Made by a program: the position numbers and the translations under genes. The notes beneath the pieces are model-generated. The model worked only from the letters and a program-made list of their open reading frames with translations. It made no database searches and had not been told where the DNA came from. Shown here in pieces: positions 26,003-61,030 of a DNA stretch of 64,000 nt. The DNA comes from a bacterium (GTDB lineage Bacteria > Zhuqueibacterota > QNDG01 > JAFGCO01): positions 88,708 through 152,707 of the forward strand of contig JAFGGN010000041.1 in NCBI GenBank assembly GCA_016930535.1, given 5' to 3'. The number at the start of each line of letters is the position of its first letter. Position 1 is the first letter of the stretch.

Positions 26003-26175
26003 TGAAACGGAGCACCGGAGATGAGGAGAATCGGAGAAAAAGCCAACGTCCTTCTCCGTTTCACCGTTTCTCACATCACCGTTTCACTATCCTCATCAAC
26101 GACCCTTTCAACCTGCCGACCCAACGACCCAATAGACCCAAAGACCATAGAAATCTCCGATTCACCGTTTCACAG
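26003..26175 (+). repeat. Copy R1 of the composite interspersed repeat (short form)
   Basis: It contains GGAGAATCGGAGAAAAA ... CTTCTCCGTTTCACCGTTTCTCACATCACCGTTTCACT ... CGACCCAACGACCCAATAGACCCAAAGACC. Confidence 0.8.
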
Positions 26176-26189
26176 GACGGGCAGCACTG

Positions 26190-27059
26190 CTAATAAAACT
26201 TTTTCTGCTCCCCCGGCGGTCTGGTCTTCCATCTCTTGTGCATCCAGAAATAATGCTCCGGGTATTCCCGGACATAACTTTCGAGAATGGACGCGTAGGC
26301 CTGGGTTACCTTTTGAATGTTTTCAGGCGTGGCTTTGTCATACTGCCCAGTCGGGCAATGCGTGTAGACCAGGCGATGACGGCCCTTGCCGACCGGAGTG
26401 TCCGCACCAAAAACCAGCCGCGCACCCGTTTTGATGGCAAAAGCGGCCGCTCCCTGCGGTGTGGCAGCGGGAATCCCGAAAAAATTCACAAACACGCCGT
26501 CCTTTCGTATGTTCTGATCGGACAGGAATATAAGCACCCTGTTGTTCCGCAGTGCTTTCAGCGCACCGCGGACCGCGACCCCCCTGCGGATGATTTCGGC
26601 ACCGGACAGGGCGCGGTACCGGTTGATGATTTCATCCACCATGGCATTATGCTGCCGTCCGACCAGAAACGACGTCGGGAATCCCAGTACGGGGACCATG
26701 CTTCCCATGGATTCAAAATTTCCGAAATGACCGCCAACCACAACCACGCCTTTTCCCTTTTCAAGCCCCTCACGGATATGTTCAAGTCCCCCGATATCCC
26801 GTGACGCCAGTACGGTCTGTTTTTTTTCATAGGGGATGCGCATGTATTCCATGACAAATTTACCGAAATTTTGATAAGCTGCCAGACCGATGGCCCTTTT
26901 TTCAGCATCTGATTTTTGAGGAAACGCCATGGACAGGTTTTTCATCACCACGGACCGCCTGATGCGCAGTACCTGAAATGCAAACCACCCCAGCATTTCA
27001 GCGGCCCTGAATGCAACCGGCAGCGGCGCCAGCCAGACAAACAGCATCATCCATCGCAT
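26190..27059 (-). CDS. Lipid A biosynthesis late acyltransferase (LpxL/HtrB family)
   Basis: It reads 'VVVVGGHFGNFE' (the HX4D/E-like region) and 'IFLSDQN...FFGIPA'. An N-terminal TM helix is present. The start is taken at M 27059 to avoid overlap. Confidence 0.7.
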   Translation of the reverse strand: MRWMMLFVWLAPLPVAFRAAEMLGWFAFQVLRIRRSVVMKNLSMAFPQKSDAEKRAIGLAAYQNFGKFVMEYMRIPYEKKQTVLASRDIGGLEHIREGLEKGKGVVVVGGHFGNFESMGSMVPVLGFPTSFLVGRQHNAMVDEIINRYRALSGAEIIRRGVAVRGALKALRNNRVLIFLSDQNIRKDGVFVNFFGIPAATPQGAAAFAIKTGARLVFGADTPVGKGRHRLVYTHCPTGQYDKATPENIQKVTQAYASILESYVREYPEHYFWMHKRWKTRPPGEQKKFY

Positions 27060-27069
27060 GACAAAATAC

Positions 27070-28032
27070 TCAAGCCAGTGTTGTATTCTCTTCGCTCTCG
27101 AAAATTTCATGAATGCCCTCTTTTCCCCAGCTCTGTTTCTGTTCCCGTGCCTTTTTCCTTTTCACGGCCCAGACCGATAAAAACAAAACAACAAATACAA
27201 GGCTCAAAATCACATGGGTATCCAGCACCGCAACCCATACATACTTTTTCCTGATATAATCCATCCAGCGGCGCTCGAATGCGACCAGGTTTTCACCCGT
27301 AATCCGTTCCATGGCCCGCTCCACCGGCTGGCCGTCCCTGAAGGCCAGTATGAACCTCGGCAGTACTTCGGGACCATAATCCTGTATAATTAATTCAACG
27401 GCGGACAATGCCTCCCGGTAGGCCAGCATTGCCTTGTCCCTGCGATAGAACAGAATATCGTCGATTTCAGCCAATGTCAGCACCTGCGAGGTCAATATGG
27501 CCCTGGAAAGGTGGAGTGTGCTGCCGATTCCCAGTTCTCCGGAGTGATAAAGGGCCAGCCCTTCATCGAACCATTTCGGAACCGGATGCGGATATACGGC
27601 CTGTCCCAGCATGACATGGCTCAATTCATGAACCACAATCGTTCTGAATTCACCCTGCCATCTGAAAATCCTGGGTGATTTAAGGTAGATCACGCCATTC
27701 TGGGGATCGGCTGCAGCTGCACCCCAGTCCGGAATCCGGCCGCCGGTCATGTACCGGAACTCCTGTTCCGTATGTGCAATCAGCACATGCACGCGGCAGC
27801 GAAATCCGGTACCGAAGGTTTTCTCAAGTAATCCCTGCTCCTTCTGTATCAGTTGAACCACTTCTTCACCAAAGGCCCAGTCCTTCTCGTTTGCCTCGAG
27901 AATCACATTGTCATATTGCCTGCTTGACGGCCCGGCATCGAGCATGACCGGACGGCCGAGCAGAAACAGGATTATAAAAACGGATCCGAATGAAAGATGA
28001 TGATTTTTCTGAAATTGATTAAAAAACGGCAT
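27070..28032 (-). CDS. Membrane-anchored HExxH zinc-metallopeptidase-like protein
   Basis: It reads 'VVHELSHVM' followed 20 aa later by 'WFDEGLA', a zincin HExxH...E arrangement. It has an N-terminal signal or TM segment and a C-terminal TM plus basic tail. Confidence 0.5.
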   Translation of the reverse strand: MPFFNQFQKNHHLSFGSVFIILFLLGRPVMLDAGPSSRQYDNVILEANEKDWAFGEEVVQLIQKEQGLLEKTFGTGFRCRVHVLIAHTEQEFRYMTGGRIPDWGAAAADPQNGVIYLKSPRIFRWQGEFRTIVVHELSHVMLGQAVYPHPVPKWFDEGLALYHSGELGIGSTLHLSRAILTSQVLTLAEIDDILFYRRDKAMLAYREALSAVELIIQDYGPEVLPRFILAFRDGQPVERAMERITGENLVAFERRWMDYIRKKYVWVAVLDTHVILSLVFVVLFLSVWAVKRKKAREQKQSWGKEGIHEIFESEENTTLA

Positions 28033-28034
28033 GA

Positions 28035-28973: not shown

Positions 28974-29022
28974 AGGCGATTCTCGTGAGGAATTCCGGGA
29001 GGTTTCCTCTTTTGAATGATTG

Positions 29023-29095
29023 AGCCACCCGTCGGACTTGAACCGACGACCTGCTCATTACGAGTGAGCTGCTCTACCAGCTGAGCTAGGGTGGC
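29023..29095 (-). tRNA. tRNA-Thr (anticodon CGT), CCA not encoded
   Basis: The reverse complement folds as GCCACCC | TAGCTCAGCTGGTAGAGCA | GCTCACTCGTAATGAGC | ... GGTTCAAGTCC ... GGGTGGC T. The anticodon loop reads CTCGTAA. Confidence 0.8.
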
Positions 29096-29224
29096 CAAGA
29101 TCTTGCAGGACATAAATTTAACAAAGTATTCCGTGTTTGTCAAGTGTTATGTCTCACCGGAATTAGCACAGAGATTACGGGTCATTGGGTCATGGAGTCG
29201 GAAGGTCGACAGGTTCGTTGGGCC

Positions 29225-29366
29225 GGAGAGTGAAGCGGAGAACCGGAGATGGGGAGAGACGGAGAAAAAAACCAGGATCTTTCTCCGTTTCACCGTTTCT
29301 CACATCACCGTTTCACTCTCCTCATCAATGATCCTTCAGACCCAAAGACCCAATGGACCCTTTTGA
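29225..29366 (+). repeat. Copy R2 of the composite interspersed repeat (short form)
   Basis: It contains GTGAAGCGGAGAACCGGAGATGGGGAGAGACGGAGAAAAAAA ... TTTCTCCGTTTCACCGTTTCTCACATCACCGTTTCACTCTCC ... CAGACCCAAAGACCCAATGGACCC ... TCCGTTTCACTCTCC. Confidence 0.8.
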
Positions 29367-29464
29367 CTTCTCCGTTTCACTCTCCATGTACTGCGAATCT
29401 ATCCATATAAAAAAAGGAGGCAACATCCCTGCCGCCTCCTTTTTTCTTACAGCATGACCTGATG

Positions 29465-30673: not shown

Positions 30674-30828
30674 GGTTTGCTCCTTTTTAATTTGAAATGC
30701 TGCCCGATCCTGATAATTCCCTCTCCGCCTCAGGCGGAAGGGAATAAGGTATCGGCAACACATCTTCATCATCTTTAATCTTTTATCTTTGTTCTTTGTT
30801 CTTTAATCTTGCCTCTTTAATCTTGCTT

Positions 30829-31851: not shown

Positions 31852-31880
31852 TTTCCTGTTTTTGAATGTGATGCCCATAA

Positions 31881-34013: not shown

Positions 34014-34048
34014 ACTTGCTCCTTTAATTGATGCGGTGCGTGCCGCAT

Positions 34049-38285: not shown

Positions 38286-38315
38286 CGATTTTTCGGAATT
38301 TTATGGATGAATTGC

Positions 38316-41660: not shown

Positions 41661-41692
41661 GCATTATTCGTCCTATCAGCCGTATACCGGAG

Positions 41693-42185
41693 TTGAAACG
41701 GAGAAACGGAGAAGATGAGAAACGGGGATGTTTAAAACAGACCGCGGACGGCTAGACCGCTGACCGCTTAAAAACGGTATAAGAGTATATGGGTATATGA
41801 GTATATGAGTGTATGGGGCCCCTTTACCCTTCCCCGGTGGGTGGCCGCGGACGGCGGACCGCGGACCGCGCGCCGTAACCGGGCACCGTTTCCGGCGTCG
41901 GAGAAACGGTGAGACGGAGAACCGGGGATAAGAAACACGGCTCTTTTCTCCGTTTCTTATTTTCTCCGTTGCTCCGTTTCACTCTCCGAACCTACGACCC
42001 AATGACCCTATGACCCAATGGACCATTAAATCGCTGCGTCTGCAGTCTTCTCTTCTCTCCGTTTCTCATTTTCTCCGTTGCTCCGTTTCACTCTCCGAAC
42101 CTACGACCCAATGACCCTATGACCCAATGGACCCTACGACGCAATGGACCCAAAGACCCTGAAAATCTCCGCTCCCTGCCGGATA
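41693..42185 (+). repeat. Copy R3 of the composite interspersed repeat (long form, with two tandem core units)
   Basis: It contains GAAACGGAGAAACGGAGAA ..., a (GTATATGAG)n run, ... GCGCGCCGTAACCGGGCACCGTTTCCGGCGTCGGAGAAACGGTGAGACGG ..., and then the unit TCTCCGTTTCTYATTTTCTCCGTTGCTCCGTTTCACTCTCCGAACCTACGACCCAATGACCCTATGACCCAATGGACC twice. Confidence 0.8.
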
Positions 42186-42657
42186 AAATGGTCCTGAAGC
42201 ATTTCCTGATCGTTTTGCTCCGGTGCTTCCGGCCGACACTCATGATATAAGCGGGGCAGCCGGCAGAACCGCCATCCTGATCAAAAACCGCATCCAGATA
42301 GCACCGGGCGGCATCTTCGAGCGTCTGGCTGTCAGAATCCGCCGTGCTGATCCGGGTCCTGATATTGGTGCGGATATGGTCCGCTGCATGCACGATTCCG
42401 CTCACTTCTTCGAAAACCGCCTTCAGCCTGTCACAACCCTGCCCCCATACATACAGGCAGGCCATCCCGGTCTTGACCGTATGATAGGCAAATGTGTAAA
42501 GTGCGTCATCCCGGAGCAGGGCGGCATCCATTGCGAGAAAAAGATGGTAGAACGGACCGCCAAACACCTGATCCAGCGGCAGGCTGGCCTCATGCTTGTA
42601 GAATACGCGATGCAGGCCGTCCTTTTTATTACTGATTTTTTTGAATTTTGCAGACAT
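42088..42657 (-). CDS. Hypothetical protein whose 3' end runs into repeat R3
   Basis: The start is taken at 'MSAKFKKISNKK...', upstream of the repeat-encoded part of ORF 42088..42885. I recognise no family. The last 30 or so codons are repeat sequence. Confidence 0.35.
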   Translation of the reverse strand: MSAKFKKISNKKDGLHRVFYKHEASLPLDQVFGGPFYHLFLAMDAALLRDDALYTFAYHTVKTGMACLYVWGQGCDRLKAVFEEVSGIVHAADHIRTNIRTRISTADSDSQTLEDAARCYLDAVFDQDGGSAGCPAYIMSVGRKHRSKTIRKCFRTILSGRERRFSGSLGPLRRRVHWVIGSLGRRFGE

Positions 42658-42781: not shown

Positions 42782-43089
42782 AATGGTCGTTGGGTCGTTG
42801 GGTCATTGGGTCTTAGGGTCGTTGAGTCATCAGGGCGTAGTGTGAAACGGAGATACGGAGATGGGGAGAAACGGAGAATTAGCAACGTTGTATTTTTCTC
42901 CGTCTCTCAATTTCTCCGAGGCTCCGCTTCACATTCTGACTCTGCGATACAGTTGACCCAACGACGCTAAAGACCCGGCAGAACCAAGGATCTTTTTGTA
43001 TTCTCCGTCTCACTTTCCGACCCAACGACTCTATTGACCTGCAGACCCAACGACCCAAAGACCCAATGACCCAATGACCCGATGGACCC
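42782..43089. repeat. Copy R4 of the composite interspersed repeat (8-mer array inverted at the left edge, then direct modules)
   Basis: It begins TGGTCGTTGGGTCGTTGGGTCATTGGGTCTTAGGGTC, the reverse complement of the GACCCAA array. It continues GTGAAACGGAGATACGGAGATGGGGAGAAACGGAGAA ... TTCTCCGTCTC ... CGACCCAACGACCCAAAGACCCAATGACCCAATGACCCGATGGACCC. Confidence 0.8.
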
Positions 43090-44130
43090 TTAATTAATCT
43101 TGATTTCCTCAAGCTCATACTCCCTTTCCCCTACGCCCAGGGACTCCGCATAAGCCAGAATGTGCCGTCCGCGTCCGAACACCCTGCGGCCGGCCCTTTT
43201 ATCGAGCAGATCGAGGGAGGCCCGGTCCAGGGCTACGGGATCCGCGGATGCCAGGATACCGAGATCCGGAACAATCGGCTTCATGCGCTGCCCGACGCAG
43301 TCGCACTGCCGCGTGATATTGAAGGCGAATGTCACGTACACATTGCGTTTTCCCTGCTGCGCCGCCAGTGCATATTCGGCGATCCGTTCCGAAAATCCTT
43401 TGTCCAGGGAACGGAGCCAGTTGATCATCACCGCATTCGAGGGGCATACGGCCATGCAGCCCAGGCAGCCCACACACTTATTCCGGTCGATTCTGGACCA
43501 GCGGCCGATATGAATGGCGTCTTCCGCGCACTTTTTCAGACAGGCGCCGCATTGTTTGCACTGCAACGGATTGATAAACGGTTTGACTCCCATATGCTGA
43601 TCCAGTTTGCCGCGTCTGGCCGCGCAGCCCATGCCCAGCTGTTTAAGCGCGCCTCCGAATCCGGCCATCAAATGCCCCTTGAAATGACTGCACACGACAA
43701 TCTGTTCCTGTTCCGCGATGAGCCGGCCCACATGGCATGTTTTGAAATACCTGCCGTTGATATCGATATCCGCCATGTCCTCCCCCGCTTCACCATCCGC
43801 AATCCAGACAGGAACCCGGGTAAAACCGTGTCTGTGCGCCAGTTCCGTGTGCGCTTTTCGCGTTGTCCGGTGTCCGCCGTACAGTACATTGCTTTCGATA
43901 AACGCGGTCTCCGCATGCTGTGCCTCCAGCCAGTCGATAATACCGTCATAATAGGATGCCGGGATAAAGGTGTGGTTTCCGTGCTCCCCGAAATGCACTT
44001 TCAAGGGGACCCTTGATGCCGGTGTCCACTGCTTGTACCGGAAAACCCTATCGACGAGCAGGCGGGCCGCATTCTGCAAAGTGTTTAAATCATTCTGATG
44101 GGGCATGGCATAAAAAAATACAGGTTCCAT
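43090..44130 (-). CDS. DUF362 domain protein with a 2x[4Fe-4S] ferredoxin insert
   Basis: Two motifs are present: 'CKQCGACLKKC' and 'CVGCLGCMAVCP' (both CxxCxxCxxxCP-type). The DUF362-like flanks read 'VHFGEHGNHTFIP...GHLMAGFGGALKQLGMG'. Confidence 0.6.
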   Translation of the reverse strand: MEPVFFYAMPHQNDLNTLQNAARLLVDRVFRYKQWTPASRVPLKVHFGEHGNHTFIPASYYDGIIDWLEAQHAETAFIESNVLYGGHRTTRKAHTELAHRHGFTRVPVWIADGEAGEDMADIDINGRYFKTCHVGRLIAEQEQIVVCSHFKGHLMAGFGGALKQLGMGCAARRGKLDQHMGVKPFINPLQCKQCGACLKKCAEDAIHIGRWSRIDRNKCVGCLGCMAVCPSNAVMINWLRSLDKGFSERIAEYALAAQQGKRNVYVTFAFNITRQCDCVGQRMKPIVPDLGILASADPVALDRASLDLLDKRAGRRVFGRGRHILAYAESLGVGEREYELEEIKIN

Positions 44131-44756: not shown

Positions 44757-44765
44757 TGTTATATC

Positions 44766-48100: not shown

Positions 48101-49444
48101 AGCCTGACCAGCATGTTCGATTTCGGAGATTCGTGGATTCTCGAGACACTGGCCAATCAAAGCGGCGCCATGCATACCATCGTCGCCGGATTCCATCTGG
48201 GTGACCTGATCGACGGAGACGGTGACGGACAATCCAATGAGGGCTCCACCGGCGATGACGATGACGGAACGGACGACGATGACGGCGTGGAATTTGTCAA
48301 CAGCCTGAACGCCGGATCCGCGGGCCAGATCGTGGTGACGGCATCCGCGGCCGGCATACTGAGCGCATGGATGGACTTCAACCGAAACGGCAGCTGGGAT
48401 GATGAAGAGGATCAGATTATCGAGGACGAGCCCCTTGACGAAGGGGCCAATCAGCTCTCGTTCCCGATTCCCGGAACCGCCGCGCCCGGAACGACCTACG
48501 TGCGTTTCCGCTTCAGCGACCAGGGCGGCCTGGGACCGAGCGGTCCTCATTACACGGACGATCCCTTCGACAATCCCGATGATCTGCCTCCCATCGGCGA
48601 GGTGGAGGATTATGCGGTAGTCATCGAGGGCGGAACCGGTAATTACGATTTTGGCGACGCGCCCGATCCCTATTACTCAACCCTGGCGGTACATTTCGGC
48701 GCCTGGCATTACATAGACGGTTCGCTGTGGATGGGGAATACCGTGGACGCAGAAACGGACGGGCTCCCCGATGCCGATGCCAAGGGAGATGACGCAAACG
48801 GTACGGATGATGAAGACGGCGTGGTGTTCCACAACACCTGGACCGCCGGAGTTCCGGCCTCGTTCACGGTCACACTTTCGGACAGCGCTTATCTGAACGT
48901 CTGGGCGGATTTCAACGGGAACGGCGACTGGAACGATCCCAACGAGCATATCGTGGACGATGATTTCTTCGGTCCCGGCAGCAAGCTCTACGATATCCTC
49001 ATTCCGGATACCGTGTACCTGGATTCGACCTATGTCCGTTTCCGGGCCAGCCGTATTCCTGATCTGACTCCCACCGGTTATGCGCCCGACGGCGAGGTGG
49101 AGGATTATTATATCCAGGGGATTTCGACCGAGATTCAGGAAAGACCGCAATCCGGAATGGCTCCGGAAGTATTCGAGCTGAAACAGAACCGGCCCAATCC
49201 GTTCAATCCGACCACGCAGATTCAATATGCGGTCCCGCGTCAGTCCCATGTCCGGATCATGCTGTTCAACACGCGCGGGCAGCTGGTTCGCACACTCATG
49301 AATGAAGAGAAAACTGCCGGACGGTACGTTGTTCAGTGGGACGGCCGGAACGAGCAGGGTGCGATGCTTCCGACCGGTGTCTATATATACACCATTCAGG
49401 CGGGATCCTTTTTCGATGCAAAGAAACTGCTGCTGTTAAAATAA
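45167..49444 (+). CDS. Giant secreted multi-GEVED-domain protein (1425 aa) with an N-terminal PKD domain and a T9SS type-A C-terminal sorting domain
   Basis: A GGAGGG ribosome-binding site and a signal peptide are present. The PKD block reads 'GTYDVTLKIACQNG'. Six 'GE(V/T/I)EDY' signatures are present (GETEDHLL, GGEIEDYVVVV, GETEDYLLHV, GETEDYLLKV, GEVEDYAVVI, GEVEDYYIQG), each preceded by a 'DYGDAP' module. The CTD reads 'NRPNPFNPTTQIQYAVP...VYIYTIQAG...KKLLLLK'. Confidence 0.75.
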   Translation: MKRFSLSEKSPLCLGCLLVILCLAPQIFAQCQADFYAIPKEGTAPLLVTFYDNSTGAYAWSWSFPGGSPPTGSGNGPITVTYAQPGTYDVTLKIACQNGNDTRTRTGYIEVNELVIRYDYGDAPEDVIAYPDLGVIGRFPTCLVGSAGFIRHTEEGRTFLGHHADYEREGNGDFCPSFIPDMYDMDEQCGEGESCLWKPDVFTIVDGSVVPLCSDMSGDHMGYPCSLARWGDNINIWFDTWEIDGAYVNVIIDWNQDGQWGGASSCDNVSIPEHILQNFHVPGAMNGHLSVLDPPAFRIGPNSGYVWARFTITNEPIPLPWDGGGGTFHAGETEDHLLKVGDLSELFDYGDAPASYSTLASDNGAYHIIMDGVYLGHAVSGDDDGKPSDKADGDDDDGVTFPEPVVAGKPTPVHVLASVNGKLKIWFDWNHDGDFDDEGEEVFDDEVPEGENDLDIDVPEYAREGETYARFRFSGGSILTPHGPVMGGEIEDYVVVVELEFEYEFGDAPEGKTAYLAEFVEMSDTDVEGSFMTCGDYGRVRHGNRGERYFGNSVDFETEGNAGCCSCGYDQDETIWDDDAGLTDGHVYTIVGDPGAEHVEYVGGSGLQMVSCEIGRWGRHLDIMYHCTAEEGAYINVLVDWNQSGGWNNGGAIYHCMDPGAPHIQEHIVQDLYVPQGWGFLSDAGAPDFRMGGPGGYVWARFTISDTPVGTDEWNGHGDFADGETEDYLLHVARAEYRDYGDAPSGDIAYPSSGVVGNFPTCPVSGSHTIRHGSDDHEFAIWFGGGGAPPTTEPSGNRGMCRGAYNLDDDNGLLYTVSYNIVREDGHLRVVPLYEGPEGGCSGSEWSNTIGTTTQMADWCGCNFDLAWSNQYWDDWAYVNVIIDWDQDGEWGGSSFIDIHASAPEHVLQNYRIPPARGGSGLGAHPYERPPGYRIGPNAGYVWARFTITPEPVPLPWDGSGDFEDGETEDYLLKVAPGSLTSMFDFGDSWILETLANQSGAMHTIVAGFHLGDLIDGDGDGQSNEGSTGDDDDGTDDDDGVEFVNSLNAGSAGQIVVTASAAGILSAWMDFNRNGSWDDEEDQIIEDEPLDEGANQLSFPIPGTAAPGTTYVRFRFSDQGGLGPSGPHYTDDPFDNPDDLPPIGEVEDYAVVIEGGTGNYDFGDAPDPYYSTLAVHFGAWHYIDGSLWMGNTVDAETDGLPDADAKGDDANGTDDEDGVVFHNTWTAGVPASFTVTLSDSAYLNVWADFNGNGDWNDPNEHIVDDDFFGPGSKLYDILIPDTVYLDSTYVRFRASRIPDLTPTGYAPDGEVEDYYIQGISTEIQERPQSGMAPEVFELKQNRPNPFNPTTQIQYAVPRQSHVRIMLFNTRGQLVRTLMNEEKTAGRYVVQWDGRNEQGAMLPTGVYIYTIQAGSFFDAKKLLLLK

Positions 49445-49467
49445 CTGCTTCAGGACCGTTTTTTACA

Positions 49468-52188: not shown

Positions 52189-52298
52189 GATGTAAATTAA
52201 ATTGGCTGAAATGGCGTCGAATTAAAAATCTGAATCTCCAACCTGGAAAAATTTGTTCGGATAACCATGAAGCGATTTCAACACAGGAGAGTTGCGCA

Positions 52299-54541
52299 AT
52301 GAGAAAAATACGAACGGTTTCTTGCCTGGCCGGATTGGTGCTGACAGGCCTGCTGCAAATATCCGGAGTCGGTTCCGTCGGGCAGATCACGGATGATATG
52401 ATCCCTTTCATGAACAACGGGATCCGAACGCTGAACACGCTCGGACAGCCGGCAATCATCAACGGTGTCGCGGTTCCGGGTGATTTCCCGGATATTCAAA
52501 TCAGCAGCAACGGTGAACCCGCACCTGGCATGCTTTTGTGCGGCACTATTTTCAACCTGTCCCAGGTTTGTAATATTTATCTCCTTATGCTGAACAGCGA
52601 CGGCTCGCCCTATTTTTACAAACGGGGCGCGCAATGCCTGAACAAGGATTTTTCCGTTCAGCCCACGTGAGACCTGATCGTATGCCTCAACATCGGCGGT
52701 GCCGCATATGTGGTGATGGACCGGACTTTCACCATGACCGATACATTCCGCTGCGGCAACGGGTACGAAACCGATTCACATGTTTTTCTGATGACGGCCG
52801 ATGGGCATGCATTCATGATCGGGCTGGATCATGTTCAGACCGATCTCAGCGGCAGGGTACCCGGAGGCTGGCCGAATGCGTCGGTCATCGAGTGTGTGGT
52901 TCAGGAGCTGGATCAGGATAAAAGCGTAATTTTTGAATGGCGCACCATCGATCACATGAACGTGGAGGACGCCGTATATGAGGACCTGACTCAGGGCACA
53001 ATCGATTATTCCCATCTCAATTCCGTGGCCCTGGACTATGATAATCAGCTTCTGATCTCCCAGCGGAACCTGAGTGAAGTGTCGAAAATCGACCGGCAGA
53101 CCGGCGCATTCGTCTGGCGTCTGGGCGGTGTGCACAATCAATTCACCTACATTAACGAGACTGCTCCCATCAGTTATCAGCATCATTTCCGTCCGGTGCC
53201 CGGGAAACCCGGCCATTACACGATACTGGACAACGGCAATTTCCGGGATCCGCAATACACACGCGCCGTGGAGTACAAAATCGATCCCGCGGCCATGACC
53301 GCGGAGAAGGTCTGGGAATACCTCTTTCCCCCGGACGGCCATTATACCGAAATGATGTGCAGTGTGCAATTGTTGCCCAAAGGCAATCGGCTCATCGACG
53401 GTCCCGGCTTCACCTATACCTGGGCCGATGAAATCAACGAAAACAACGAAGCCGTGCAACATCTGTACATCAACGGTATATCGAGCTATCGCACCATGCG
53501 TTTCGAATGGGACGGCGTGGCCGCGGTCCCGGATCTTTTTGTCGAGGCGGATAACGAGAAAGTGATACTCGGCATGAACAAATTCGGCGATACGGAGGTG
53601 GATCATTTCAATATATACCATGGGCTGTCCGATCCGCCCGTGTCCCTGATTGCCGTTTCAACGGAACCCCTGTATGAAATCAGGGATATCAAGAATCAGA
53701 CCCGGCATTATTTCAGGGTGACAGCTGTGCACAGGGACGGAACCGAAAGCCCGCCCTCGGAGGTTCAGTCGATAATGCCGGTTTTTTACATACTGGGCGG
53801 TAATCTCATCCGGAATCAGGGATTCGAAAATACGGACCAGTGGACGCTCGAGCTGGAAGACGGGGCAGCTGCGGAAGGCCGGGTGGAAGACGGGACTTAT
53901 GTCGTACGTATCACGAGTCCGGGTGACCAGATCACCAGCGTACAGCTGATACAGACCGGCCTGCTCATTGAGAACGGCTTCCGGTATCAGCTGGAATTCG
54001 ATGCCTGTGCCTCGGTCCCCCGAAGCATTGCCGTCCGTATCGAAAAAGGCGTCTCCCCTTTTACATCCTACGGCCGTATCATTAAAAACCTGGGTTCGGC
54101 CCCGGCGCATTTCGTGTTCGATTTCGAGATGAAAAAAGACAGCAATCCCGGTGCCAGAATCAGCTTTCAATGCGGAAAATACGAAGGCGACGTTTTTATC
54201 AACGATGTCTCCCTGCAGCAAATCGTTCCGACATCCGTCCGGGACCGGAATCCGGAAGTGTGCCGGACCTTCGAACTGCTGCCCAATTATCCGAATCCGT
54301 TCAACGGAGTTACGCGAGTATCATATAAGATCAATTCGGTTGCTTTCATCAAATTTATAATTTTTAACATGCAGGGACAACGGATAAAATACTTTTGCAC
54401 GCAACACAACAGCCGGGACAGTACACACTGCAATGGTACGGAGACAACGATTTTAATCGACCTGTTTCCTCAGGCATTTACTTGATAACACTCGATAACG
54501 GGTTTTCCTGTAAACCAATTAAGTGTGTTATATTGAGATAA
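52299..54541 (+). pseudogene. Tandem paralog of the ASST-like gene, disrupted by an in-frame TGA (52668-52670) and a -1 frameshift in an A4 run (about 54386-54392)
   Basis: It is about 75% identical to 49651..52188 across the propeller. The N-terminal piece 52299..52670 and the body 52710..54485 are in the same frame, separated only by the TGA. The T9SS CTD ('PGQYTLQWYGDNDFNRPVSSGIYLITLDNGFSCKPIKCVILR') is readable only in the -1 frame after 54392. Confidence 0.6.
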
Positions 54542-54867
54542 TAAAAATGTAAATATTTTCGACTTTGTGTGTTAAATATTATAAAGGATTTGCTAACCGC
54601 CTGCAATGGCCAGGTTGTTATCAATCCTTTTTCTTTTATACACGTTTCGCTTGACCTTTTAATTTTTTTTATATATTTTTCGGTACCTGCCAATAACAAT
54701 TATAATATACTTCATCCAACAATAGAACAAGGCAGTTCTAGTACTGAATCAAGTCAGATTCCTGTTGACTTAATTATCAGTACATTCACATCATTCTTAC
54801 ATCATGTGAATTACCAACTTTATGTGCAACAATTATTCCGTCAATGTGTTTTTTAGGAGGTCTGAAC

Positions 54868-57800
54868 ATGAAAATAAAAAAAATCTGTTTCGCAGCTATT
54901 TTTATGTTGATTTCCTCAACATTTTCAAGACCGTTTCAAACCATGAACGGTATCCATTATTTCATACGGAATAGGGGCCAATGGCCTGATGATGTCGAAT
55001 TTCTTTCAAAAATCAATGGATTGAATGCCTGGATAACTAAGAAGGGTGTTGTTTATGACTTTTATGATTTGAAATCGGTGAAACCAATGTCTGAAATACA
55101 CCTGCATAAAAAAGTTATCCCAATAAATTCTTCATTCAGGTCAGGACACATTATAAGAATGAATTTTTTTCGTAATAATGAAAAAACCGAAACAAAAATC
55201 ATGATCGATAATACAGAAAAGTTGGATGCCTATTTTAATTACTTCATAGGATCCAATAGATCGGTTTGGAACAGTAATGTGCCATTATACAAATCTGTAA
55301 AAATGGAACTTTTCAATAAAGTATATATACAATTCTATTTTACTGCGGAAGGATTCAGATATGATTTTATACTGGAGCCCGGTGCACAACCGGAGAATAT
55401 CCGTTTGGCATTCGAGGGTCAAAATGGGATGTGTATTACCGCAGATGGCGAAATATCTCTATTCACCACGCTCGGGGAAATACTATTTAAAGACATAAAC
55501 GCATATCAGGTTATAAAAAACAAAATCATTAAAATGCGCTGTCGGTTTGTTAAATATGACAATGAACAAATTGGATTGGACGCTGAATGGAAAGATTTAA
55601 AAACTCCGCTTATCATCGATCCCTTGTTGTACTCCACATTCCTGGGAGGCAGCAGTACCGAGGGTGCCTGTATGCTGGGATTTGATTCGAATGTCTCTTT
55701 GGATGGCGCGGGCAATGTGATTGTCAGCGGGTATACACGATCAGATGATTTTCCGACAACTTCGGGTGCATATGATCAGACATGGAATGGCGAAGGCGGA
55801 TTGTTATCCGGATATCACGGAGATATTTTTGTAAGTAAATTGAACAGTACCGGTTCTGGTTTAATATTCTCAACATTCATAGGCGGCGATCTATGCGAGG
55901 CTGCCACATGTGCTATCGACAACCAGGAGGATATATATTTGACTGGATGGACACTTTCAGATAACTTTCCTATAACCACTGGCGCTTTTGACAATACATA
56001 TAATGGAAGCACAGGAGACCCGAATGGAATGGATGCGATAATTGTAAAACTTTCAAATGATGGAAGAAATCTGATCTATTCCACATATATTGGAGGGAAC
56101 AGCCTTGATCAAGGAATGGATATAGATATCGATTTCAATGGAAATTGCTACATAACAGGGGTTACAGCATCGGAAAATTTTCCTGCTACCGATGGTGCAT
56201 ATGATGAAAGTTATAATGGCGGAGGATCCGTAGGGGGTGGCTCCTATGGCGATGTGTTCGTGACAAAATTGAATCCTTCAGGCAGCAACCTTGTTTATTC
56301 AACTTATATCGGAGGTTCCAGCATAGATTGTGGTAATAGTTGTACCCTTGATCCCAGTAATAACCTGATACTGACCGGACATACTTATTCGAATGATTTC
56401 CCGGTCACACCTGGATCGTATGACAATACTTATAATGGCGGCGCTGTCGATGCATTTCTTTTAAAGTTAAACGCATCTGGCGATAATCTCAATTTTTCAA
56501 CATACATGGGGGGCAGTGGAAATGATTGGAGCCACGGTCTTTACTTGGAGTCTAATGGTGACATTCTAACCGGCGGCAGAACAACATCCAGTAATTTTCC
56601 TGTAACTTCAGGATCATATGACACAAACTACAAAAGCGGTGAAGATGTTTTTATCACCAGATTGAATAATTCAGGAAGCCTAATATTGAATTCAACATAT
56701 ATCGGCGGAACACAGGATGATCAATGCCTAAGCCTGAATGTGGACTATAATGACGAAATAATATTTACTGGTTATACTCAATCACCCAATTATCCTTGTA
56801 CTTCATGGGCAGACGATTTGACATATAATGGCGGTTCGAGCGATATAATTATAAGCAAGTTTAGTTCTGGTTTGAACCATTTACTATATTCCTCTTTCCT
56901 CGGTGGCACAGGTGCAGAAACAGGTGTGGGCGTAGTTTTGGATGCGGCCGGGGATGCATTTATTACTGGGGTTACAGGATCTTCAGATTTTCCGATAACT
57001 GCCAATGCATATGATGCAGTGTTTGCCGGAGGGCCATCGTGGGGTGAAGCATTTATTAGCAAAGTCGAGTTCAATAGTCAAACTGCAATTGTTGCCTTAT
57101 CCGAATATTCAGCTGGGAGATTCAATTACTCCTTAACGTATGGTGAAGGATTGATAACTGAATGGTCTCTTGCCACTCCGGGAGGCATTACGAGTGCGGA
57201 AATTGCTTCAGGCACCAGCGCTCAGACAAATGGCTGGGATGGCGTAAGTTATACATCTACCACTGCCACTTTTACATGCTCAGGTGGATGGTCAGGCACA
57301 GGTTCCCCAATAGAAGGATTCTATATATATGGTGTTCCAGGCGGAATGGGCACATGGACATGTCATAATAGTAATGGTATAATCGAAGCGACTCTTTCTG
57401 TAGAAATCAGTTCAATAACGGCCATTTTGAATGGTACATCCGTTTTGATCTGTTGGACCACTGAAAGTGAAATTGAAAACGTCGGTTTCAACATATATCG
57501 TTCAACAGACATGTCAAATCATCCGAATAGAATAAATACGTCTGTGATAACAGGCTGTGGAAATTCTTCATCCTCAATTGAGTATAAATATATTGACGAT
57601 GATATTGAACCAGGCAGGCAGTACTATTACATGATTGAATCTCTAGATAGTCATGGAAATACTACAAAATATGAAACTGTACAAGCTTTACCCTGCGGAT
57701 CAGAAAAACCAGTCGATTACGCATTTTTTTATAATTATCCAAATCCCTTTAATCCAACTACGACATTTACTTATGATGTCCCAATAGAGACGCAGGTCGA

Positions 57801-57990
57801 ATTGTGTATCTATAATATTATTGGTGAAAAAATAAAATCTCTTGTCCATTCGTCTAAATCTGCTGGAAGACACGTGGTCATTTGGGATGGCTTAGATGAA
57901 GAAAATCATAAAGTCGATTGTGGTGTGTATATCGCAGCATTAATTACTACTGATTATCAAAGATCATACAAAATAACCTTACTAAAATAA
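54868..57990 (+). CDS. SBBP (beta-propeller repeat) protein with a T9SS C-terminal sorting domain, in an AT-rich (about 35-38% GC) segment
   Basis: An AGGAGG ribosome-binding site and a signal peptide are present. About 8 repeats read 'GYT.S.DFP(T/V)T.GAYD.TYNGG...D.FV.KLN..GS.L.YST(Y/F)IGG'. The CTD reads 'YNYPNPFNPTTTFTYDVP...CGVYIAAL...YKITLLK'. Confidence 0.7.
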   Translation: MKIKKICFAAIFMLISSTFSRPFQTMNGIHYFIRNRGQWPDDVEFLSKINGLNAWITKKGVVYDFYDLKSVKPMSEIHLHKKVIPINSSFRSGHIIRMNFFRNNEKTETKIMIDNTEKLDAYFNYFIGSNRSVWNSNVPLYKSVKMELFNKVYIQFYFTAEGFRYDFILEPGAQPENIRLAFEGQNGMCITADGEISLFTTLGEILFKDINAYQVIKNKIIKMRCRFVKYDNEQIGLDAEWKDLKTPLIIDPLLYSTFLGGSSTEGACMLGFDSNVSLDGAGNVIVSGYTRSDDFPTTSGAYDQTWNGEGGLLSGYHGDIFVSKLNSTGSGLIFSTFIGGDLCEAATCAIDNQEDIYLTGWTLSDNFPITTGAFDNTYNGSTGDPNGMDAIIVKLSNDGRNLIYSTYIGGNSLDQGMDIDIDFNGNCYITGVTASENFPATDGAYDESYNGGGSVGGGSYGDVFVTKLNPSGSNLVYSTYIGGSSIDCGNSCTLDPSNNLILTGHTYSNDFPVTPGSYDNTYNGGAVDAFLLKLNASGDNLNFSTYMGGSGNDWSHGLYLESNGDILTGGRTTSSNFPVTSGSYDTNYKSGEDVFITRLNNSGSLILNSTYIGGTQDDQCLSLNVDYNDEIIFTGYTQSPNYPCTSWADDLTYNGGSSDIIISKFSSGLNHLLYSSFLGGTGAETGVGVVLDAAGDAFITGVTGSSDFPITANAYDAVFAGGPSWGEAFISKVEFNSQTAIVALSEYSAGRFNYSLTYGEGLITEWSLATPGGITSAEIASGTSAQTNGWDGVSYTSTTATFTCSGGWSGTGSPIEGFYIYGVPGGMGTWTCHNSNGIIEATLSVEISSITAILNGTSVLICWTTESEIENVGFNIYRSTDMSNHPNRINTSVITGCGNSSSSIEYKYIDDDIEPGRQYYYMIESLDSHGNTTKYETVQALPCGSEKPVDYAFFYNYPNPFNPTTTFTYDVPIETQVELCIYNIIGEKIKSLVHSSKSAGRHVVIWDGLDEENHKVDCGVYIAALITTDYQRSYKITLLK

Positions 57991-58002
57991 GAAGTCATCG
58001 GA

Positions 58003-58230
58003 TCGGAGCGTGAAGCGGAGAACCGGAGCAGAGGAGAGACGGAGACAAAACAAACCCCTTCTCCGTTTCTCATTCTCTCCGCATCACCGTTTCACTCTCC
58101 GACACTACGACATAATGACCCAATGACTCAATGACCTTCTTGTATTCTCCGTTTCTCCCCATCTCCGAAGCTCCGTTTCACTCTCCAACCCAACGACCCA
58201 ACGACCCAAAGACCCTAAGACCCGATGGAC
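58003..58230 (+). repeat. Copy R5 of the composite interspersed repeat
   Basis: It contains GTGAAGCGGAGAACCGGAGCAGAGGAGAGACGGAGACAAAACAAACCCCTTCTCCGTTTCTC ... CACCGTTTCACTCTCCGACACTACGACATAATGACCCAATGACTCAATGACC ... CCGTTTCACTCTCCAACCCAACGACCCAACGACCCAAAGACCCTAAGACCCGATGGACC. It ends exactly at the rSAM stop codon. Confidence 0.8.
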
Positions 58231-59658
58231 CTATATACTTACTTTTTCCCTGTACTGCACCTCGATATCCGCATTTTTACCCGGTGTCAGGAGATCCACG
58301 ACTTTCAGGAACGTTTTGTTCTTGCGTTTCCATGACCGGTTGAGATCACGGGCCATGTGAGCCAGTCCCAGATCGAACCATTTGCCGCGCAGAAAACGTC
58401 GGATCATCTCCAGCTTTGAATAGAACCGGTCGTGGCTCACAATCTGGGCCCACTGCAGACCCTTGAAAGAGAACCGGGACGGTCTGAACACCACATGATG
58501 CGCATCGTACAGGCTCCAGTCCCTGAACTGTATACGCCCTTCCTGCACCATTTTCTCATAGAATTCGGAACCGGGCAGCGGCGTCAGAATCAGAAACTGA
58601 CTCGAAGTCAGGCCGGACCGTCGTGCAAATTTCACGGTTTCCTTAACGGTCCGGCTGTCGTCCTCGTCGAACCCGAACACGAACATGCCGTGTACGTGAA
58701 TCCGGGCCTTTTTCAGAATCCGGACGGCCCGTACGATGTCTTCGACAGTCTGGCTTTTCTTCATGGCTTTCAGACTCTCGGGATTCACGGATTCCATGCC
58801 GATAAAGAGCGTATGACATCCGGCCTTTTTCATCAGACGGACCAGCTCCGCGTCTGCGGCCACGTCCACACGCACCTGCGTGGACCATTTGAATCTGAAT
58901 TTCTCCCTGATCATCGCCTCCAGAAGATCACGCGCCCGTTTCCGGTTGGCCGTAAAATTATCGTCGTAGAAAAACACGTAATTGCCCCGCGCATTGTACT
59001 GGCGCAGCTCCTCGATAATGTTTTCCGTGGACCGGTACCGGTACTGTTTACCGAACATACCGGTCACTGAACAAAAGGAGCAGTTGAACGGACAGCCCCG
59101 TGATGTCTGGACCGGGACGATGCGGTGCCTTGCGATTTTCCGGATCTGTCCCTTCAGAAGCGAAAAATCCGGAAAGGGAATCGCGTCCAGGTCCCGGCAC
59201 AACCCCGACTGCGGATTGTGCACGATACGGCCCTCGCGCACGAAGGACAGACCCGGAACCGTATCGAAGGGCAGTCCTTTTTCCCAGCACGCCGCAAATG
59301 CCGCCAAGGGGGCCTCCCCTTCCCCGCGAATCACATAATCGGCATGTTCCAGCGCCTCGTCCGTCAGATAGGTCACATGCGGTCCGCCCATCATCACGGG
59401 AATGTTCATGGACCGGATCCGGTCAGCGATGGCATAGGCCCGGGGCGCCGTGGCCGTAATGGTGGAAATGCCAACCAGGTCGGCGTCATACAGGCTGTCA
59501 AACCGGATCGGAAACTGTGCCTCGACCACGATATCCACGTCCCAGCCGCGGTTTTTCATCAATGTGCCCAGCACGAAACTGCCCAGCCTGGGCAGCGGGA
59601 ATTTTGAAAAGATATGAATGTTCGAACTTTTCGGCTCTATAAAAACCATTTTAGGCAT
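58231..59658 (-). CDS. B12-binding-domain radical SAM protein (class B)
   Basis: The N-terminus has a cobalamin-binding Rossmann-like domain. The radical-SAM motif reads 'SRGCPFNCSFCS' (CxxxCxxC). Confidence 0.75.
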   Translation of the reverse strand: MPKMVFIEPKSSNIHIFSKFPLPRLGSFVLGTLMKNRGWDVDIVVEAQFPIRFDSLYDADLVGISTITATAPRAYAIADRIRSMNIPVMMGGPHVTYLTDEALEHADYVIRGEGEAPLAAFAACWEKGLPFDTVPGLSFVREGRIVHNPQSGLCRDLDAIPFPDFSLLKGQIRKIARHRIVPVQTSRGCPFNCSFCSVTGMFGKQYRYRSTENIIEELRQYNARGNYVFFYDDNFTANRKRARDLLEAMIREKFRFKWSTQVRVDVAADAELVRLMKKAGCHTLFIGMESVNPESLKAMKKSQTVEDIVRAVRILKKARIHVHGMFVFGFDEDDSRTVKETVKFARRSGLTSSQFLILTPLPGSEFYEKMVQEGRIQFRDWSLYDAHHVVFRPSRFSFKGLQWAQIVSHDRFYSKLEMIRRFLRGKWFDLGLAHMARDLNRSWKRKNKTFLKVVDLLTPGKNADIEVQYREKVSI

Positions 59659-60361
59659 TTTTCGCTCCTTCGCTCTGTTTCCGGTTCCGGTTTTTCAGGT
59701 TCTGAACTTCTTTCCGTTTCTTCTTCAGGAGATCTTCCCAACGCTGAATTCCTTCTTTCAAAAGATTCATCTGACCGAAAAGCTTGTCGATCGCTTCCAG
59801 CATGTCATCCAGTTTTTGTCCGGTCTCGGCCCTGCCCAGTAATTCCGGATCGGACTGAATCTGCAAAAACTCCCTGAAATAATCGGATACCTGTTTGATG
59901 TCTTCCAGCGAGTATCCGAAGCGCTGCAGGTCCTGAACCAAATGTGATAAAAATATGTAAACTTCAGAGTAAAGCCTGAATCCCCCCTCACTGCGCATAT
60001 CGGGTTCGATGATGCCGATGGTTTCCCAGTGTTTCAGTGTTCTCGGACTCACTCCCACCTTGTCGGCGAGCCCGCCTACCGTCAGGTAATGGTCCATCGC
60101 CTTGTCTGACTGTTTGTGTTCTGTTTTCGGCAGCCCGACCCGTTTCACGATTTTCTGAATCTCCTCCAGGCTGTATCCCAGATCGGTCAGTTTGCTGATT
60201 TTCTCCACCTGGCCGATGGCGCTCTCCGAATAAAAAGGCACCTTGTCTTCGGTATAGCCGACCGGCGCGATCAGTCTGGCTTTCTCCCAGGTTTCCAGTA
60301 TGTCGTCATGAATACCGACCTTGGCCAGAAACTCGTCCCGAATATAAATCTGTCCCGCCAT
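59651..60361 (-). CDS. MerR-family regulator with two tandem MerR HTH domains and a C-terminal coiled coil
   Basis: HTH 1 reads 'IRDEFLAKVGIHDDILETWEKARLIAP'. HTH 2 reads 'YLTVGGLADKVGVSPRTLKHWETIGIIEP'. It has no effector-binding or B12 domain. It overlaps the rSAM start by 8 nt. Confidence 0.65.
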   Translation of the reverse strand: MAGQIYIRDEFLAKVGIHDDILETWEKARLIAPVGYTEDKVPFYSESAIGQVEKISKLTDLGYSLEEIQKIVKRVGLPKTEHKQSDKAMDHYLTVGGLADKVGVSPRTLKHWETIGIIEPDMRSEGGFRLYSEVYIFLSHLVQDLQRFGYSLEDIKQVSDYFREFLQIQSDPELLGRAETGQKLDDMLEAIDKLFGQMNLLKEGIQRWEDLLKKKRKEVQNLKNRNRKQSEGAKNA

Positions 60362-60469
60362 AATACCCCTGTACGTTATTTTTTATTTTATTTTTTTTCA
60401 ACCTATACGTGAACGTACAGGAATATAATTTATTCATCAGGGAAAGTCAAGCGGTTTTTTAAATGCAGC

Positions 60470-61030
60470 AGAAGAGTATATGGGTGTATGGGTATATAAA
60501 ACCGCAGATCGCAAAAGACAGTGACACGGAGAAACGGAGCAGAGGAGAGACGGAGACAAAACAAATCCCTTCTCCGGTTCTCCGCTTCACACTACACGCT
60601 GACGACTCAATGACCTTTTTGTGTTCTCCGTTTCCCCGTTTCACTCTCCGACCCGACGACCATATGACCCGATGACCCTACAGATTCTATAGACCGCCGA
60701 AAATCCCAAATTACAAATCCCAAAAAACAAATAAATCACAAAAAACAAATTCTAAAATCCAAACACAAGAATCAGACCGCTGACAGCCGACCGCATGACC
60801 GCGCGCCGTAACCGGGCACCGTTTCCGGTGGCGGAGAAACGGTGAGACGGGTATACAATCCATGACCGAAGACGGCTGACTGCAGACCGCATATCATGGA
60901 CGGCCAAGCTGGCCGTCCTACATCAGTTTTCTCCGTTTCTCATCTTCTCCGTTTCCCCGTTTCACGCTCCGACCCGACGACCCAATGACCTGATGACCCA
61001 ATGACCCGATGACCTCATGGACCTGAAACG
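60470..61030 (+). repeat. Copy R6 of the composite interspersed repeat (long form, homologous to R3)
   Basis: It contains the AGAGTATATGGGTGTATGGGTATAT run, then ACGGAGAAACGGAGCAGAGGAGAGACGGAGACAAAACAAATCCCTTCTCC, then GCGCGCCGTAACCGGGCACCGTTTCCGGTGGCGGAGAAACGGTGAGACGG. It continues TCTCCGTTTCTCATCTTCTCCGTTTCCCCGTTTCACGCTCCGACCCGACGACCCAATGACCTGATGACCCAATGACCCGATGACCTCATGGACC. Confidence 0.8.

Follow-up and report, generated by a model that had tools for sequence, protein, structure and literature searches.

Six intergenic loci in a 64-kb stretch of genome from an uncultured bacterium (contig JAFGGN010000041.1 of assembly GCA_016930535.1, lineage Zhuqueibacterota; 64,000 nt, hereafter the window) carry what is most likely an undescribed, lineage-specific family of non-coding mosaic 'foldback' repeats. 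The loci, R1 to R6 (Table 1), consist of an arm of ~90 nt, termed X, and its reverse complement, X'. The two are separated by a short loop and are predicted to form long hairpins. All positions below are counted from the first letter of the window.

The repeats exist and are confined to six loci

An earlier note, made from the DNA letters of the window, had reported recurrent motifs at six intergenic positions. We found motifs of the family at all six. With up to two mismatches allowed, GACCCAANGACCCAA matched the window 34 times (0.52 expected from shuffles), CCGTTTCACTCTCC 13 times (0.39 expected) and GGAGAAACGGAGA 40 times (1.67 expected). This corresponds to a 24- to 65-fold enrichment, and for none of the three motifs was the observed count reached by any shuffle. 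All matches fell within the six loci, except for three two-mismatch matches of GGAGAAACGGAGA. We also built an arm profile from eleven arms and searched the window with nhmmer. The profile detected 12 arms on the + strand and seven on the - strand, every one within R1 to R6 (R1, for example, was found with E values of 1e-16 and 4e-8), and no arm in the first 25 kb of the window or in other spacers. The motifs were present at the reported coordinates of all six loci. Over the 39 kb in which they occur, the repeats make up about 5% of the sequence.

Low-complexity sequence could give rise to apparent repeats through collapsed or chimeric joins, and such an assembly artefact had been named in advance as a refuting outcome. 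An independent short-read assembly provided a direct comparison. Logan contig L001 (run SRR13394437) is 100% identical to window positions 58025-60555 and includes 206 bp of R5 together with the initial 86 bp of R6; a second Logan contig, L008, covers the last 37 nt of R4. Both contigs end inside repeats, where the copies have k-mers in common, and the breaking of short-read contigs within repeats is what an artefact would lead one to expect. Against this stand the exact reproduction of the R5 part, by which we ruled the artefact out, and that of the R6 and R4 parts. Moreover, the genes flanking the repeats are intact and syntenic with those of relatives, and the copies are diverged rather than identical to each other. 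We regard the artefact reading as already largely refuted and give it hardly any credence.

Anatomy of the arm and layout of the loci

Arm X has the general structure (TTCTCCGT)n-CCGTTTCACTCTCC-(NNGACCCA)n-ATGGACC. It starts with TTGTATTCTCCGTTTCTC, which is followed by four or five TTCTCCGT-like units, CCGTTTCACTCTCCGA and a (NNGACCCA)n array, and it usually ends in ATGGACC. The arm is 66% pyrimidine. Its reverse complement accounts for the GGAGAAACGGAGA elements and, in R2 and R4, for the (GGGTCNTT)n arrays. What had been described as three separate modules are therefore consecutive parts of one ~90-nt arm and of its reverse complement.

The loci have an 8-nt period. Self-identity at a lag of 8 nt was 0.43-0.57 at every locus versus 0.25 in the remaining window. 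Tandem Repeats Finder reported period 8 nearly throughout the loci, in the form of (GAAACGGA)n, (TCTCCGTT)n, (GACCCAAT)n and (GTATATGR)n, and likewise found a 7-8-nt (GACCGCN)n array. According to this analysis the run given earlier as (GTATATGRG)n has the octamer GTATATGR as its unit.

The layout is fixed at every locus: X', a loop of 12-16 nt, Xa, a CTTTTTGT-type connector, and Xb or a fragment of Xb. Each locus is thus a cluster of two to four arms, one inverted and then one or two direct. A repeat comparison yielded direct families of 13 and 16 copies, and inverted pairs of up to 86 nt at 80-88% complementarity. The predicted hairpins are imperfect, 45-86 bp long, and pair X' with X, not one arm with itself (the folds did not include isolated arms). 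When folded as DNA, the five single X'-loop-X hairpins had z-scores of -2.6 to -5.8 (R1, -2.6; R2, -5.3; R5, -5.8). R4 is the most complete copy and was predicted to fold as a whole into one nested hairpin (-71.2 kcal/mol and z -7.8 as DNA; z -10.4 as RNA).

Table 1. Repeat loci R1 to R6, a solitary array of a different family, and an open reading frame (ORF) that extends into R3
Feature	Coordinates	Strand	Composition or remarks
R1	25979..26178	+	Partial X' 25979-26040; loop; Xa with (GACCCAAN) array 26050-26138; partial arm 26153-26174
R2	29178..29397	+	Full X' including (GGGTCNTT) array 29183-29269; loop; Xa 29278-29361; partial arm 29368-29397
R3 (nested long form)	41689..42174	+	Outer X' 41689-41728; (GACCGCN)n 41739-41768; (GTATATGR)4.9 41777-41815; (CCGCGGA)n 41845-41870; D block with small hairpin 41865-41920; inner X' 41894-41936; Xa 41944-42027; Xb 42053-42134, array to 42160; partial arm start 42163-42174
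R4 (most complete copy)	42784..43090	+	Array' (GGTCGTTG)5.5 42785-42828; X' to 42879; loop; Xa 42893-42977; CTTTTTGT connector; Xb with (GACCCAAN) array of at least 6 units 43000-43089
R5	57994..58232	+	X' 57994-58047; loop; Xa 58058-58137; connector; Xb 58141-58231
R6 (long form)	60470..61026	+	(GTATATGR)2.8 60476-60497; X' 60517-60557; short arms 60569-60616 and 60619-60684; A-rich (AAATCCC / AAATCACAAAAAACAAAT) spacer 60695-60770; (GACCGCN) units and D block 60772-60853; GC hairpin 60898-60918; full arm 60926-61024
Solitary heptamer array (different family)	30769..30828	+	(TCTTTRN)n, ends ...TCTTGCTTTTAC
ORF	42088..42657	-	189 codons; between R3 and R4

The long forms, R3 and R6, contain additional (GTATATGR)n and (GACCGCN)n arrays and a conserved 60-nt D block, located inside or beside the hairpin. 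The D block is nearly identical in the two loci and holds a small hairpin. The A-rich spacer is found in R6 only. The GC hairpin of R6 is a perfect 8-bp stem, GGACGGCC-AAGCT-GGCCGTCC, and has no counterpart in R3.

In R3 the inner X' pairs with Xa, and the outer X' (41694-41728) is 91% complementary to Xb (42056-42090), 327 nt apart. A segment of about 370 bp is similarly flanked in R6 by an X' (60517-60557) and a full X (60926-61011). These bounded segments, together with the location of R6 in a divergent promoter region, would fit phase-variable segments that are inverted by a site-specific recombinase. We consider this very improbable, as no recombinase gene lies nearby, no promoter-like site was found inside the bounded segments and the internal modules are ordered differently in R3 and R6; the 12-16-nt loops of the short forms are too short for inversion.

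The repeats are inserted and dispersed DNA

The loci have more in common than periodic units. Over 88 nt, R1 matches R2 at 83% identity, and R5 matches R6a at 85% over 75 nt; the non-periodic loops form part of both stretches. The connectors and the D block, too, recur at different loci, and arms at the same position of different loci are more alike than Xa and Xb within one locus. Since composite units including their loops are common to several loci, we conclude that the family was dispersed and did not arise by in-place slippage only. Local tandem duplication is shown as well: Xb of R3 is a tandem duplicate of Xa, 98% identical and located 109 bp downstream.

We compared two of the loci with the orthologous spacers of the nearest relatives found. 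These were contigs L032 (JGI 3300056888, Ga0568905_0000012) and L033, whose radical SAM protein is 74% identical to its orthologue at 58231-59658, and contig L037 (75%). The gene order VWA-MerR-radical SAM is conserved in L032 and L033. Their VWA-MerR spacer is 195 bp long and can be aligned to the window at either flank, through GGTATGACGA...TGTTTAC and GCTTGACTT...TACGTTCACGTATA, respectively. Between these conserved flanks, the window has R6 (~560 bp) in place of ~28 nt; R6 is missing in L032 and L033. The site equivalent to R5, downstream of the radical SAM gene, is occupied in the relative by a 66-bp spacer with a plain GC hairpin. The X arm was undetectable in every relative locus examined. 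At the level of sequence comparison, these results support the view that R5 and R6 are inserted DNA relative to the orthologous spacers of the nearest relative.

The promoter/operator upstream of the MerR-family gene (window 60362-60460; L032 9190-9290) is conserved in the form GCTTGACTT-N24-TACGTTCACGTA, with a palindromic ACGT-rich core.

R3 has changed a coding sequence. The last ~28 codons of the ORF at 42088-42657(-) are the reverse complement of the terminal array of R3. Homologues of this ORF are 153-163 aa long and their alignment is limited to residues 1-160. We conclude that the repeat replaced the native stop codon. The loci are therefore not strictly intergenic, as had been assumed.

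The earlier note had likened the repeats to a non-autonomous mobile element. This gained support insofar as they are probably inserted non-autonomous DNA, given that R5 and R6 are absent in the relative, that a stop codon was replaced and that composite units recur between loci, but the features of a classical miniature inverted-repeat transposable element (MITE) were not confirmed. A cut-and-paste MITE or foldback transposon would have octamer arrays as its terminal inverted repeats and would be mobilized by a DDE transposase encoded elsewhere in the genome. Such array-built terminal inverted repeats are present in R4 (43 nt, 88% complementary) and in R2, the element size of 200-300 bp is suitable, and the copies are intergenic and missing at the orthologous sites of the relative. 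However, the left terminal array is missing in four of the six copies, and the terminal inverted repeats of R1, R3, R5 and R6 are absent or truncated. The ends are ragged and finish in partial arms, and the extra arms are direct, not inverted. Target-site duplications, the search for which had been proposed earlier, were not apparent: none of the boundaries of the six loci had a consistent direct repeat of >=4 nt within +/-10 nt. The window, too, is without a transposase and without a parent IS element that would have matching termini. A classical MITE is therefore an improbable explanation.

Position at gene ends and possible roles in RNA or DNA structure

Most of the repeats lie close to the 3' ends of genes. 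The stop codon of a lipid A acyltransferase-like gene (26190-27110, - strand) lies 15 nt away from the end of R1. R2 starts at ~29178, and not at 29225 as reported before, and is located between a tRNA-Thr gene (29022-29095) and an ordinary terminator-like hairpin (29405-29445). R3 and R5 occupy gaps between convergent genes. The right end of R4 adjoins the stop codon of a DUF362 gene (43090-44130, - strand). R5 takes up all of the 240-bp gap that separates gene 54844-57990(+) from gene 58231-59658(-), with an overlap of 1-2 nt into the stop codon of the second gene. R6 lies in the divergent promoter region of the VWA-MerR spacer. All six loci have the same orientation. A reversed array had been noted as an exception at the left edge of R4; this was confirmed, but the left array of R2 (29177-29215) is also reverse-complemented.

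This placement would be compatible with an element that acts at the transcript level, as a stabilizer of mRNA 3' ends, an unconventional bidirectional terminator or a structured non-coding RNA family. Five of the six loci are at the 3' ends of genes, with R4 and R5 starting at or overlapping a stop codon, and the convergent gaps of R3 and R5 are without a canonical terminator. The RNA hairpins are strong, with z-scores of -4 to -10 (-5.4 for R2). On the other hand, an alignment of the six hairpins contained compensatory changes in 0 of 18 predicted pairs, and the covariation term was unfavourable (+1.22), although the power of six sequences is low. X' complements the arms of other loci better than its own partner; for X' of R4 the values were 40 with its own Xa and 70 with R5b. 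The gathering score of Rfam 15 was reached only by two tRNAs, and a relaxed scan returned sub-threshold look-alikes of miRNA precursors, which matched because the hairpins are long. The structured RNA family suggested in the earlier note thus found no match in Rfam and no compensatory pairs.

Termination of transcription is not favoured either. The stems are not followed by a U-tract, and terminator-like sites were counted at or below the shuffle expectation. Neither promoter-like nor terminator-like sites in the repeats exceeded expectation, and we rejected intrinsic terminators, as no GC stem with U-tract coincided with the hairpins. In addition, R6 lies in a divergent promoter region, and the spacer of the relative that is orthologous to the R5 site has an ordinary GC hairpin. 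Overall, we consider a transcript-level element unlikely.

Alternatively, the 8-nt register could itself be functional, either as a multi-site platform for a sequence-specific protein that binds DNA, single-stranded DNA or RNA, or by formation of G-quadruplexes on the (GGGTCNTT)n strand. Conserved positions recur every 8 nt (CGGAGA / TCTCCG, GACCC) with variable positions between them. All four canonical (G3N1-7)x4 motifs of the window fall in arrays. At R1, R3, R4 and R5 the G-rich strand comes directly after the stop codon of a - strand gene, and at R6 it lies upstream of the + strand gene in antisense orientation; at R2 the ordinary terminator-like hairpin is located in between. The same placement has been reported for G-quadruplex-forming GGGAATC / GGGGAYT repeats of Xanthomonas and Nostoc (Rehm et al. 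2015, PMC4692102). However, four intact G3 tracts are found in only four of about 13 arrays, the G4Hunter maximum is only about 1.2-1.3, and shuffled sequence has 1.6 +/- 1.3 motifs where the window has four. A number of arrays have degenerate units (GACAT, GACTC, GACCT), the analysis yielded no candidate for a binding protein, and in textbook geometry an 8-bp spacing would place the sites off one face of B-DNA. A functional register, be it a protein platform or a set of G-quadruplexes, therefore seems doubtful to us.

Probable origin of the family

We consider it somewhat more probable than an even chance that the family is selfish or neutral inserted DNA that grew by slippage and spread into new spacers as copies made by a trans-acting or recombinational process. 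There is no sign of a new function. Growth would be local, by slipped-strand or tandem duplication in the 8-bp register. Copying into new intergenic sites would require the trans-acting or recombinational process; by analogy, our leading guess is a hairpin-recognizing single-strand transposase of the RAYT/IS200 type, as proposed for REPINs. Copies would persist where insertion is tolerated, mostly hard against the 3' ends of genes and occasionally past stop codons. As a side effect, transcripts of both strands would end in a long hairpin and may be stabilized or ended by it, similarly to repetitive extragenic palindromic (REP) sequences and bacterial interspersed mosaic elements (BIMEs).

Several observations weigh against this origin. 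No transposase, RAYT or recombinase domain was detected with Pfam and NCBIfam among the sizeable ORFs of the 64-kb window. Target-site duplications are lacking and the ends are not sharp. The copies are 15-25% diverged, without a near-identical dispersed pair, and recent mobility is therefore not shown. The relative is distant (74% identity of the radical SAM protein), and insertion in the window and loss in the relative are not separable with certainty. The sample consists of six loci from one 39-kb stretch. Finally, the chance of all six loci having the same orientation is about 1/32, and in five of the six the array end is turned towards the stop codon of a gene on the - strand. Shared orientation and placement at stop codons are not predicted by a purely selfish model and might indicate a function. 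The window has a uniformly negative GC skew and most genes between 26 and 44 kb are on the - strand; therefore the window cannot discriminate between the direction of replication and that of the genes as the cause of the orientation.

It is conceivable, though we would not expect it, that the 8-nt register, the layout and the placement at stop codons reflect dedicated machinery, for instance a protein reading single-stranded DNA or RNA in steps of 8 nt or a new hairpin-dependent single-strand transposase. If so, the repeats would represent the first bacterial class of 'foldback' transposons or a new post-transcriptional system of 3' untranslated regions, and a diverged form would be common to a whole uncultured lineage with type IX secretion genes. 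Proteins encoded in the window include PorV-like proteins and proteins with Por_Secre_tail or FlgD_ig C-terminal sorting domains, which suggest a lineage with type IX secretion.

Comparison with known repeat systems

The family is of a known kind, in that it consists of interspersed intergenic mosaic repeats. Unusual are the arms that are wholly in 8-bp register and the inverted-direct-direct layout. In the way it works, the family comes closest to REPIN/BIME-type mosaics. Repeats of this style are best known from the short tandemly repeated repetitive (STRR) sequences of cyanobacteria and the BIMEs of enterobacteria.

BIMEs are mosaics with other conserved motifs and are often found at the 3' ends of genes. 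Like REPINs and BIMEs, the repeats of the window are short, non-coding and extragenic, have inverted copies that form a hairpin, are clustered, nested and mosaic, and are often located at gene 3' ends. REPINs are inverted REP doublets that form a hairpin in single-stranded DNA or mRNA, compensatory changes are common in their hairpins, and a hairpin-recognizing single-strand transposase has been proposed for them (PMC3116915). The X'-loop-X inverted doublet is comparable and was present at all six loci (DNA z -2.6 to -7.8). Unlike in REPINs, compensatory changes were seen in none of the 18 pairs (low power with six sequences), and no RAYT, the Y1 HUH transposase whose single-copy gene is flanked by REP sequences, was found among the ORFs of the window. 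The layout is inverted-direct-direct and not alternating as in REPINs and BIMEs. Unlike the REP unit, which is an imperfect palindrome of 20-40 nt, the arm is ~90 nt long, non-palindromic and 8-bp periodic, and has a microsatellite tail. We also rejected a CRISPR array, which would have identical repeats of 23-50 nt and unique spacers at a regular pitch, because of the 7-8-nt periods, the lack of spacers and the absence of cas domains from the window. The previous statement that the repeats are neither CRISPR nor simple REP sequences was thereby upheld, on the basis of the 7-8-nt periods and the ~90-nt non-palindromic arm.

A second group of similar repeats comprises STRRs and heptamer repeats. 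G-rich heptamer repeats form intergenic tandem arrays of 7-nt units whose sense strand is G-rich just after stop codons (Rehm et al. 2015, PMC4692102), and TAACTGA heptamer repeats are intergenic as well (MacGregor 2015, PMC4679880). As in these systems, tandem units of 7-9 nt are over-represented in intergenic DNA, are sometimes inverted and vary in number. The G-rich strand just after stop codons or antisense upstream of ORFs is a further similarity to the repeats described by Rehm et al. Those repeats prefer four units, which gives them the capacity for G-quadruplexes; of the window arrays, four have a canonical G-quadruplex motif and about nine have none. The differences are that the units of the window are octamers in imperfect arrays and, compared with STRRs, that the arrays form the tail of a longer arm with a CCGTTTCACTCTCC core, loops and a D block, and that whole units are dispersed.

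R4 and R2 resemble MITEs and Foldback elements in their size of 200-300 bp, their inverted termini of tandem units and the single hairpin formed by the whole element. Unlike MITEs, the family is without target-site duplications and most copies are without one terminus. The long terminal inverted repeats of eukaryotic Foldback transposons are built of short tandem repeats, which is a general resemblance. The BOX elements of Streptococcus pneumoniae and the NIME and Correia mosaics of Neisseria are modular intergenic repeats with a module of variable copy number and stable hairpins. In contrast to the window repeats, their modules are 45-60 nt and not 8 nt long, their sequences are unrelated and they occur in other host lineages.

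Distribution in sequence databases

We searched for the family outside the window with the pattern TCTCCGTTTCN{0,30}CCGTTTCACTCTCC. In an exact scan of 185,579 species genomes (GTDB, one per species) the family was not found; the sole match, an acidic coding repeat in a Lachnospiraceae metagenome-assembled genome, was rejected as a chance match. In JGI metagenomes the same pattern gave five matches, and none of the three that were read contained a full arm (L005 and L006 were not inspected). L003 and L007 were coding or chance matches, and L004 had a short (TCTCCGTT)-like run, located between genes, but no other part of the arm. In IMG/VR, the shortened pattern TCTCCGTTTCN{0,30}CCGTTTCAC gave eight matches. 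Three were read, and only L028 resembled the arm, by a (TCACCGTT)n run among STRR-like inverted heptamer arrays. Together with the lack of a match in Rfam, these chance or partial matches agree with the earlier statement that the family is undescribed.

The octamers alone are not diagnostic. In IMG/VR, (GACCCAAN)3 was found in 14 contigs and (GTATATGN)3 in 19, and all those inspected were pure microsatellites. Permuted control octamers were at least as common (24 and 50 contigs), and we therefore regard the IMG/VR arrays as generic and unrelated to the family. A BLAST search of plasmids identified only (GTATATGA)~30 microsatellites in Psychrobacter and Citrobacter plasmids, and a BLAST search of phages matched nothing. 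Pure (GACCCAAY)n and (GTATATGA)n arrays are generic microsatellites, present in contigs of phages and in plasmids of Psychrobacter and Citrobacter. A protein search with concatenated peptides from spurious ORFs gave nothing at E <= 10, but this test was weak because of the word filter and low complexity.

Some of the database sequences have features of their own. The Psychrobacter sp. WB2 plasmid pWB2 (L040, NZ_CP124527.1) contains at 1505-1780 an unannotated microsatellite of ~34 units (GTATATGA / GTGTATGA), which lies upstream of a toxin-antitoxin pair. Plasmids of Psychrobacter, Citrobacter, Morganella and Cronobacter carry comparable arrays at several sites. R3 and R6 have the identical octamer, which the controls suggest is a coincidence. 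L028 (IMG/VR 3300033490_000004) has inverted heptamer arrays (GATTAGC/CCAGTCG, CCAATCG) at 380-470, 2010-2125 and 8814-8880, and its (TCACCGTT)n octamer run resembles the arms of R1 and R2. L004 (JGI Ga0315282_10024087) has an inverted pair of AATGATG/ATCATTC heptamer arrays at 2482-2657. The inverted arrays of L028 and L004 are STRR-like foldbacks in unrelated contigs.

Foldbacks in the nearest relatives

Two intergenic foldbacks of ~450 bp were found in L032, at 940-1390 and 17680-18080, in opposite orientations. Their arms are ~130 nt long and consist of consecutive (AAGAAWC)n and (AATGTTG)n arrays around a hairpin-rich centre of ~200 bp; the middle of the arm is either GACCGCGGAC-like or (GTTGCATG)4. 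The elements are similar to the window repeats in that inverted arms made of short-unit arrays surround a central segment in an intergenic location. Furthermore, the GACCGCGGAC module and the (GTTGCATG)4 run are reminiscent of modules in R3 and R6, GACCGCGGAC and (GTATATGR)n, respectively. They differ in their unit sequences (AAGAAWC and AATGTTG), in the opposite orientations of the copies and in that the X arm was undetectable.

The 10-mer GACCGCGGAC is concentrated in R3 and R6, and among 39 loci it occurred once, inside element A, an L032 foldback. This single exact match is suggestive but not significant alone. A second similarity concerns the solitary (TCTTTRN)n array of the window (30769-30828), which resembles the (TCTTGNT)n arm of L032 and has a matching end, ...TCTTGCTTTTAC. 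This array extends from stop to start codon and covers all 57 bp that separate two genes of the - strand. Its sense strand is a purine-rich (AAGAWNA)n run immediately upstream of the start codon.

Judged from these sequences, the clade appears to be characterized by array-built foldbacks whose unit sequences are replaced quickly. An uncultured lineage with type IX secretion genes and its relatives would accordingly fill intergenic DNA with hairpin-forming mosaics of 7-8-nt units. In practical terms, the repeats disrupt short-read assemblies, yield spurious ORFs and have changed the C-terminus of at least one gene product.

Genomic surroundings

The first part of the window (1-24953) is free of the repeat family and differs in composition, with a GC content of ~0.38-0.48 versus ~0.50-0.58 for the rest. 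Its genes code almost entirely for two-component signalling (hybrid histidine kinases, response regulators and Hpt proteins). The low-GC block ends at a tRNA-Val gene (24877-24953, - strand), on the 3' side of the tRNA, and no integrase was seen. The block could be a genomic island or a mis-join.

A second region of low GC content is the gene at 54844-57990 (~0.39 versus a regional ~0.53), which is bounded by R5 on its right side. The 1048-aa product contains DUF7948, SBBP beta-propeller repeats and a FlgD_ig C-terminal domain. Because of the low GC content and a different neighbour in the relative, this gene is probably a recent acquisition.

Repetition was also observed within coding sequences. 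Tandem paralogues at 49651-52188 and 52710-54485 each encode an arylsulfotransferase-like protein with CBM_4_9 and Por_Secre_tail domains, and stretches of several hundred bases, offset by 2360 bp, are 70-74% identical in their DNA. A 1425-aa protein (45167-49444) contains three GEVED domains, a PKD domain and a type IX secretion tail of the FlgD_ig / CHU_C type, and its gene has internal DNA repeats that are 68-86% identical.

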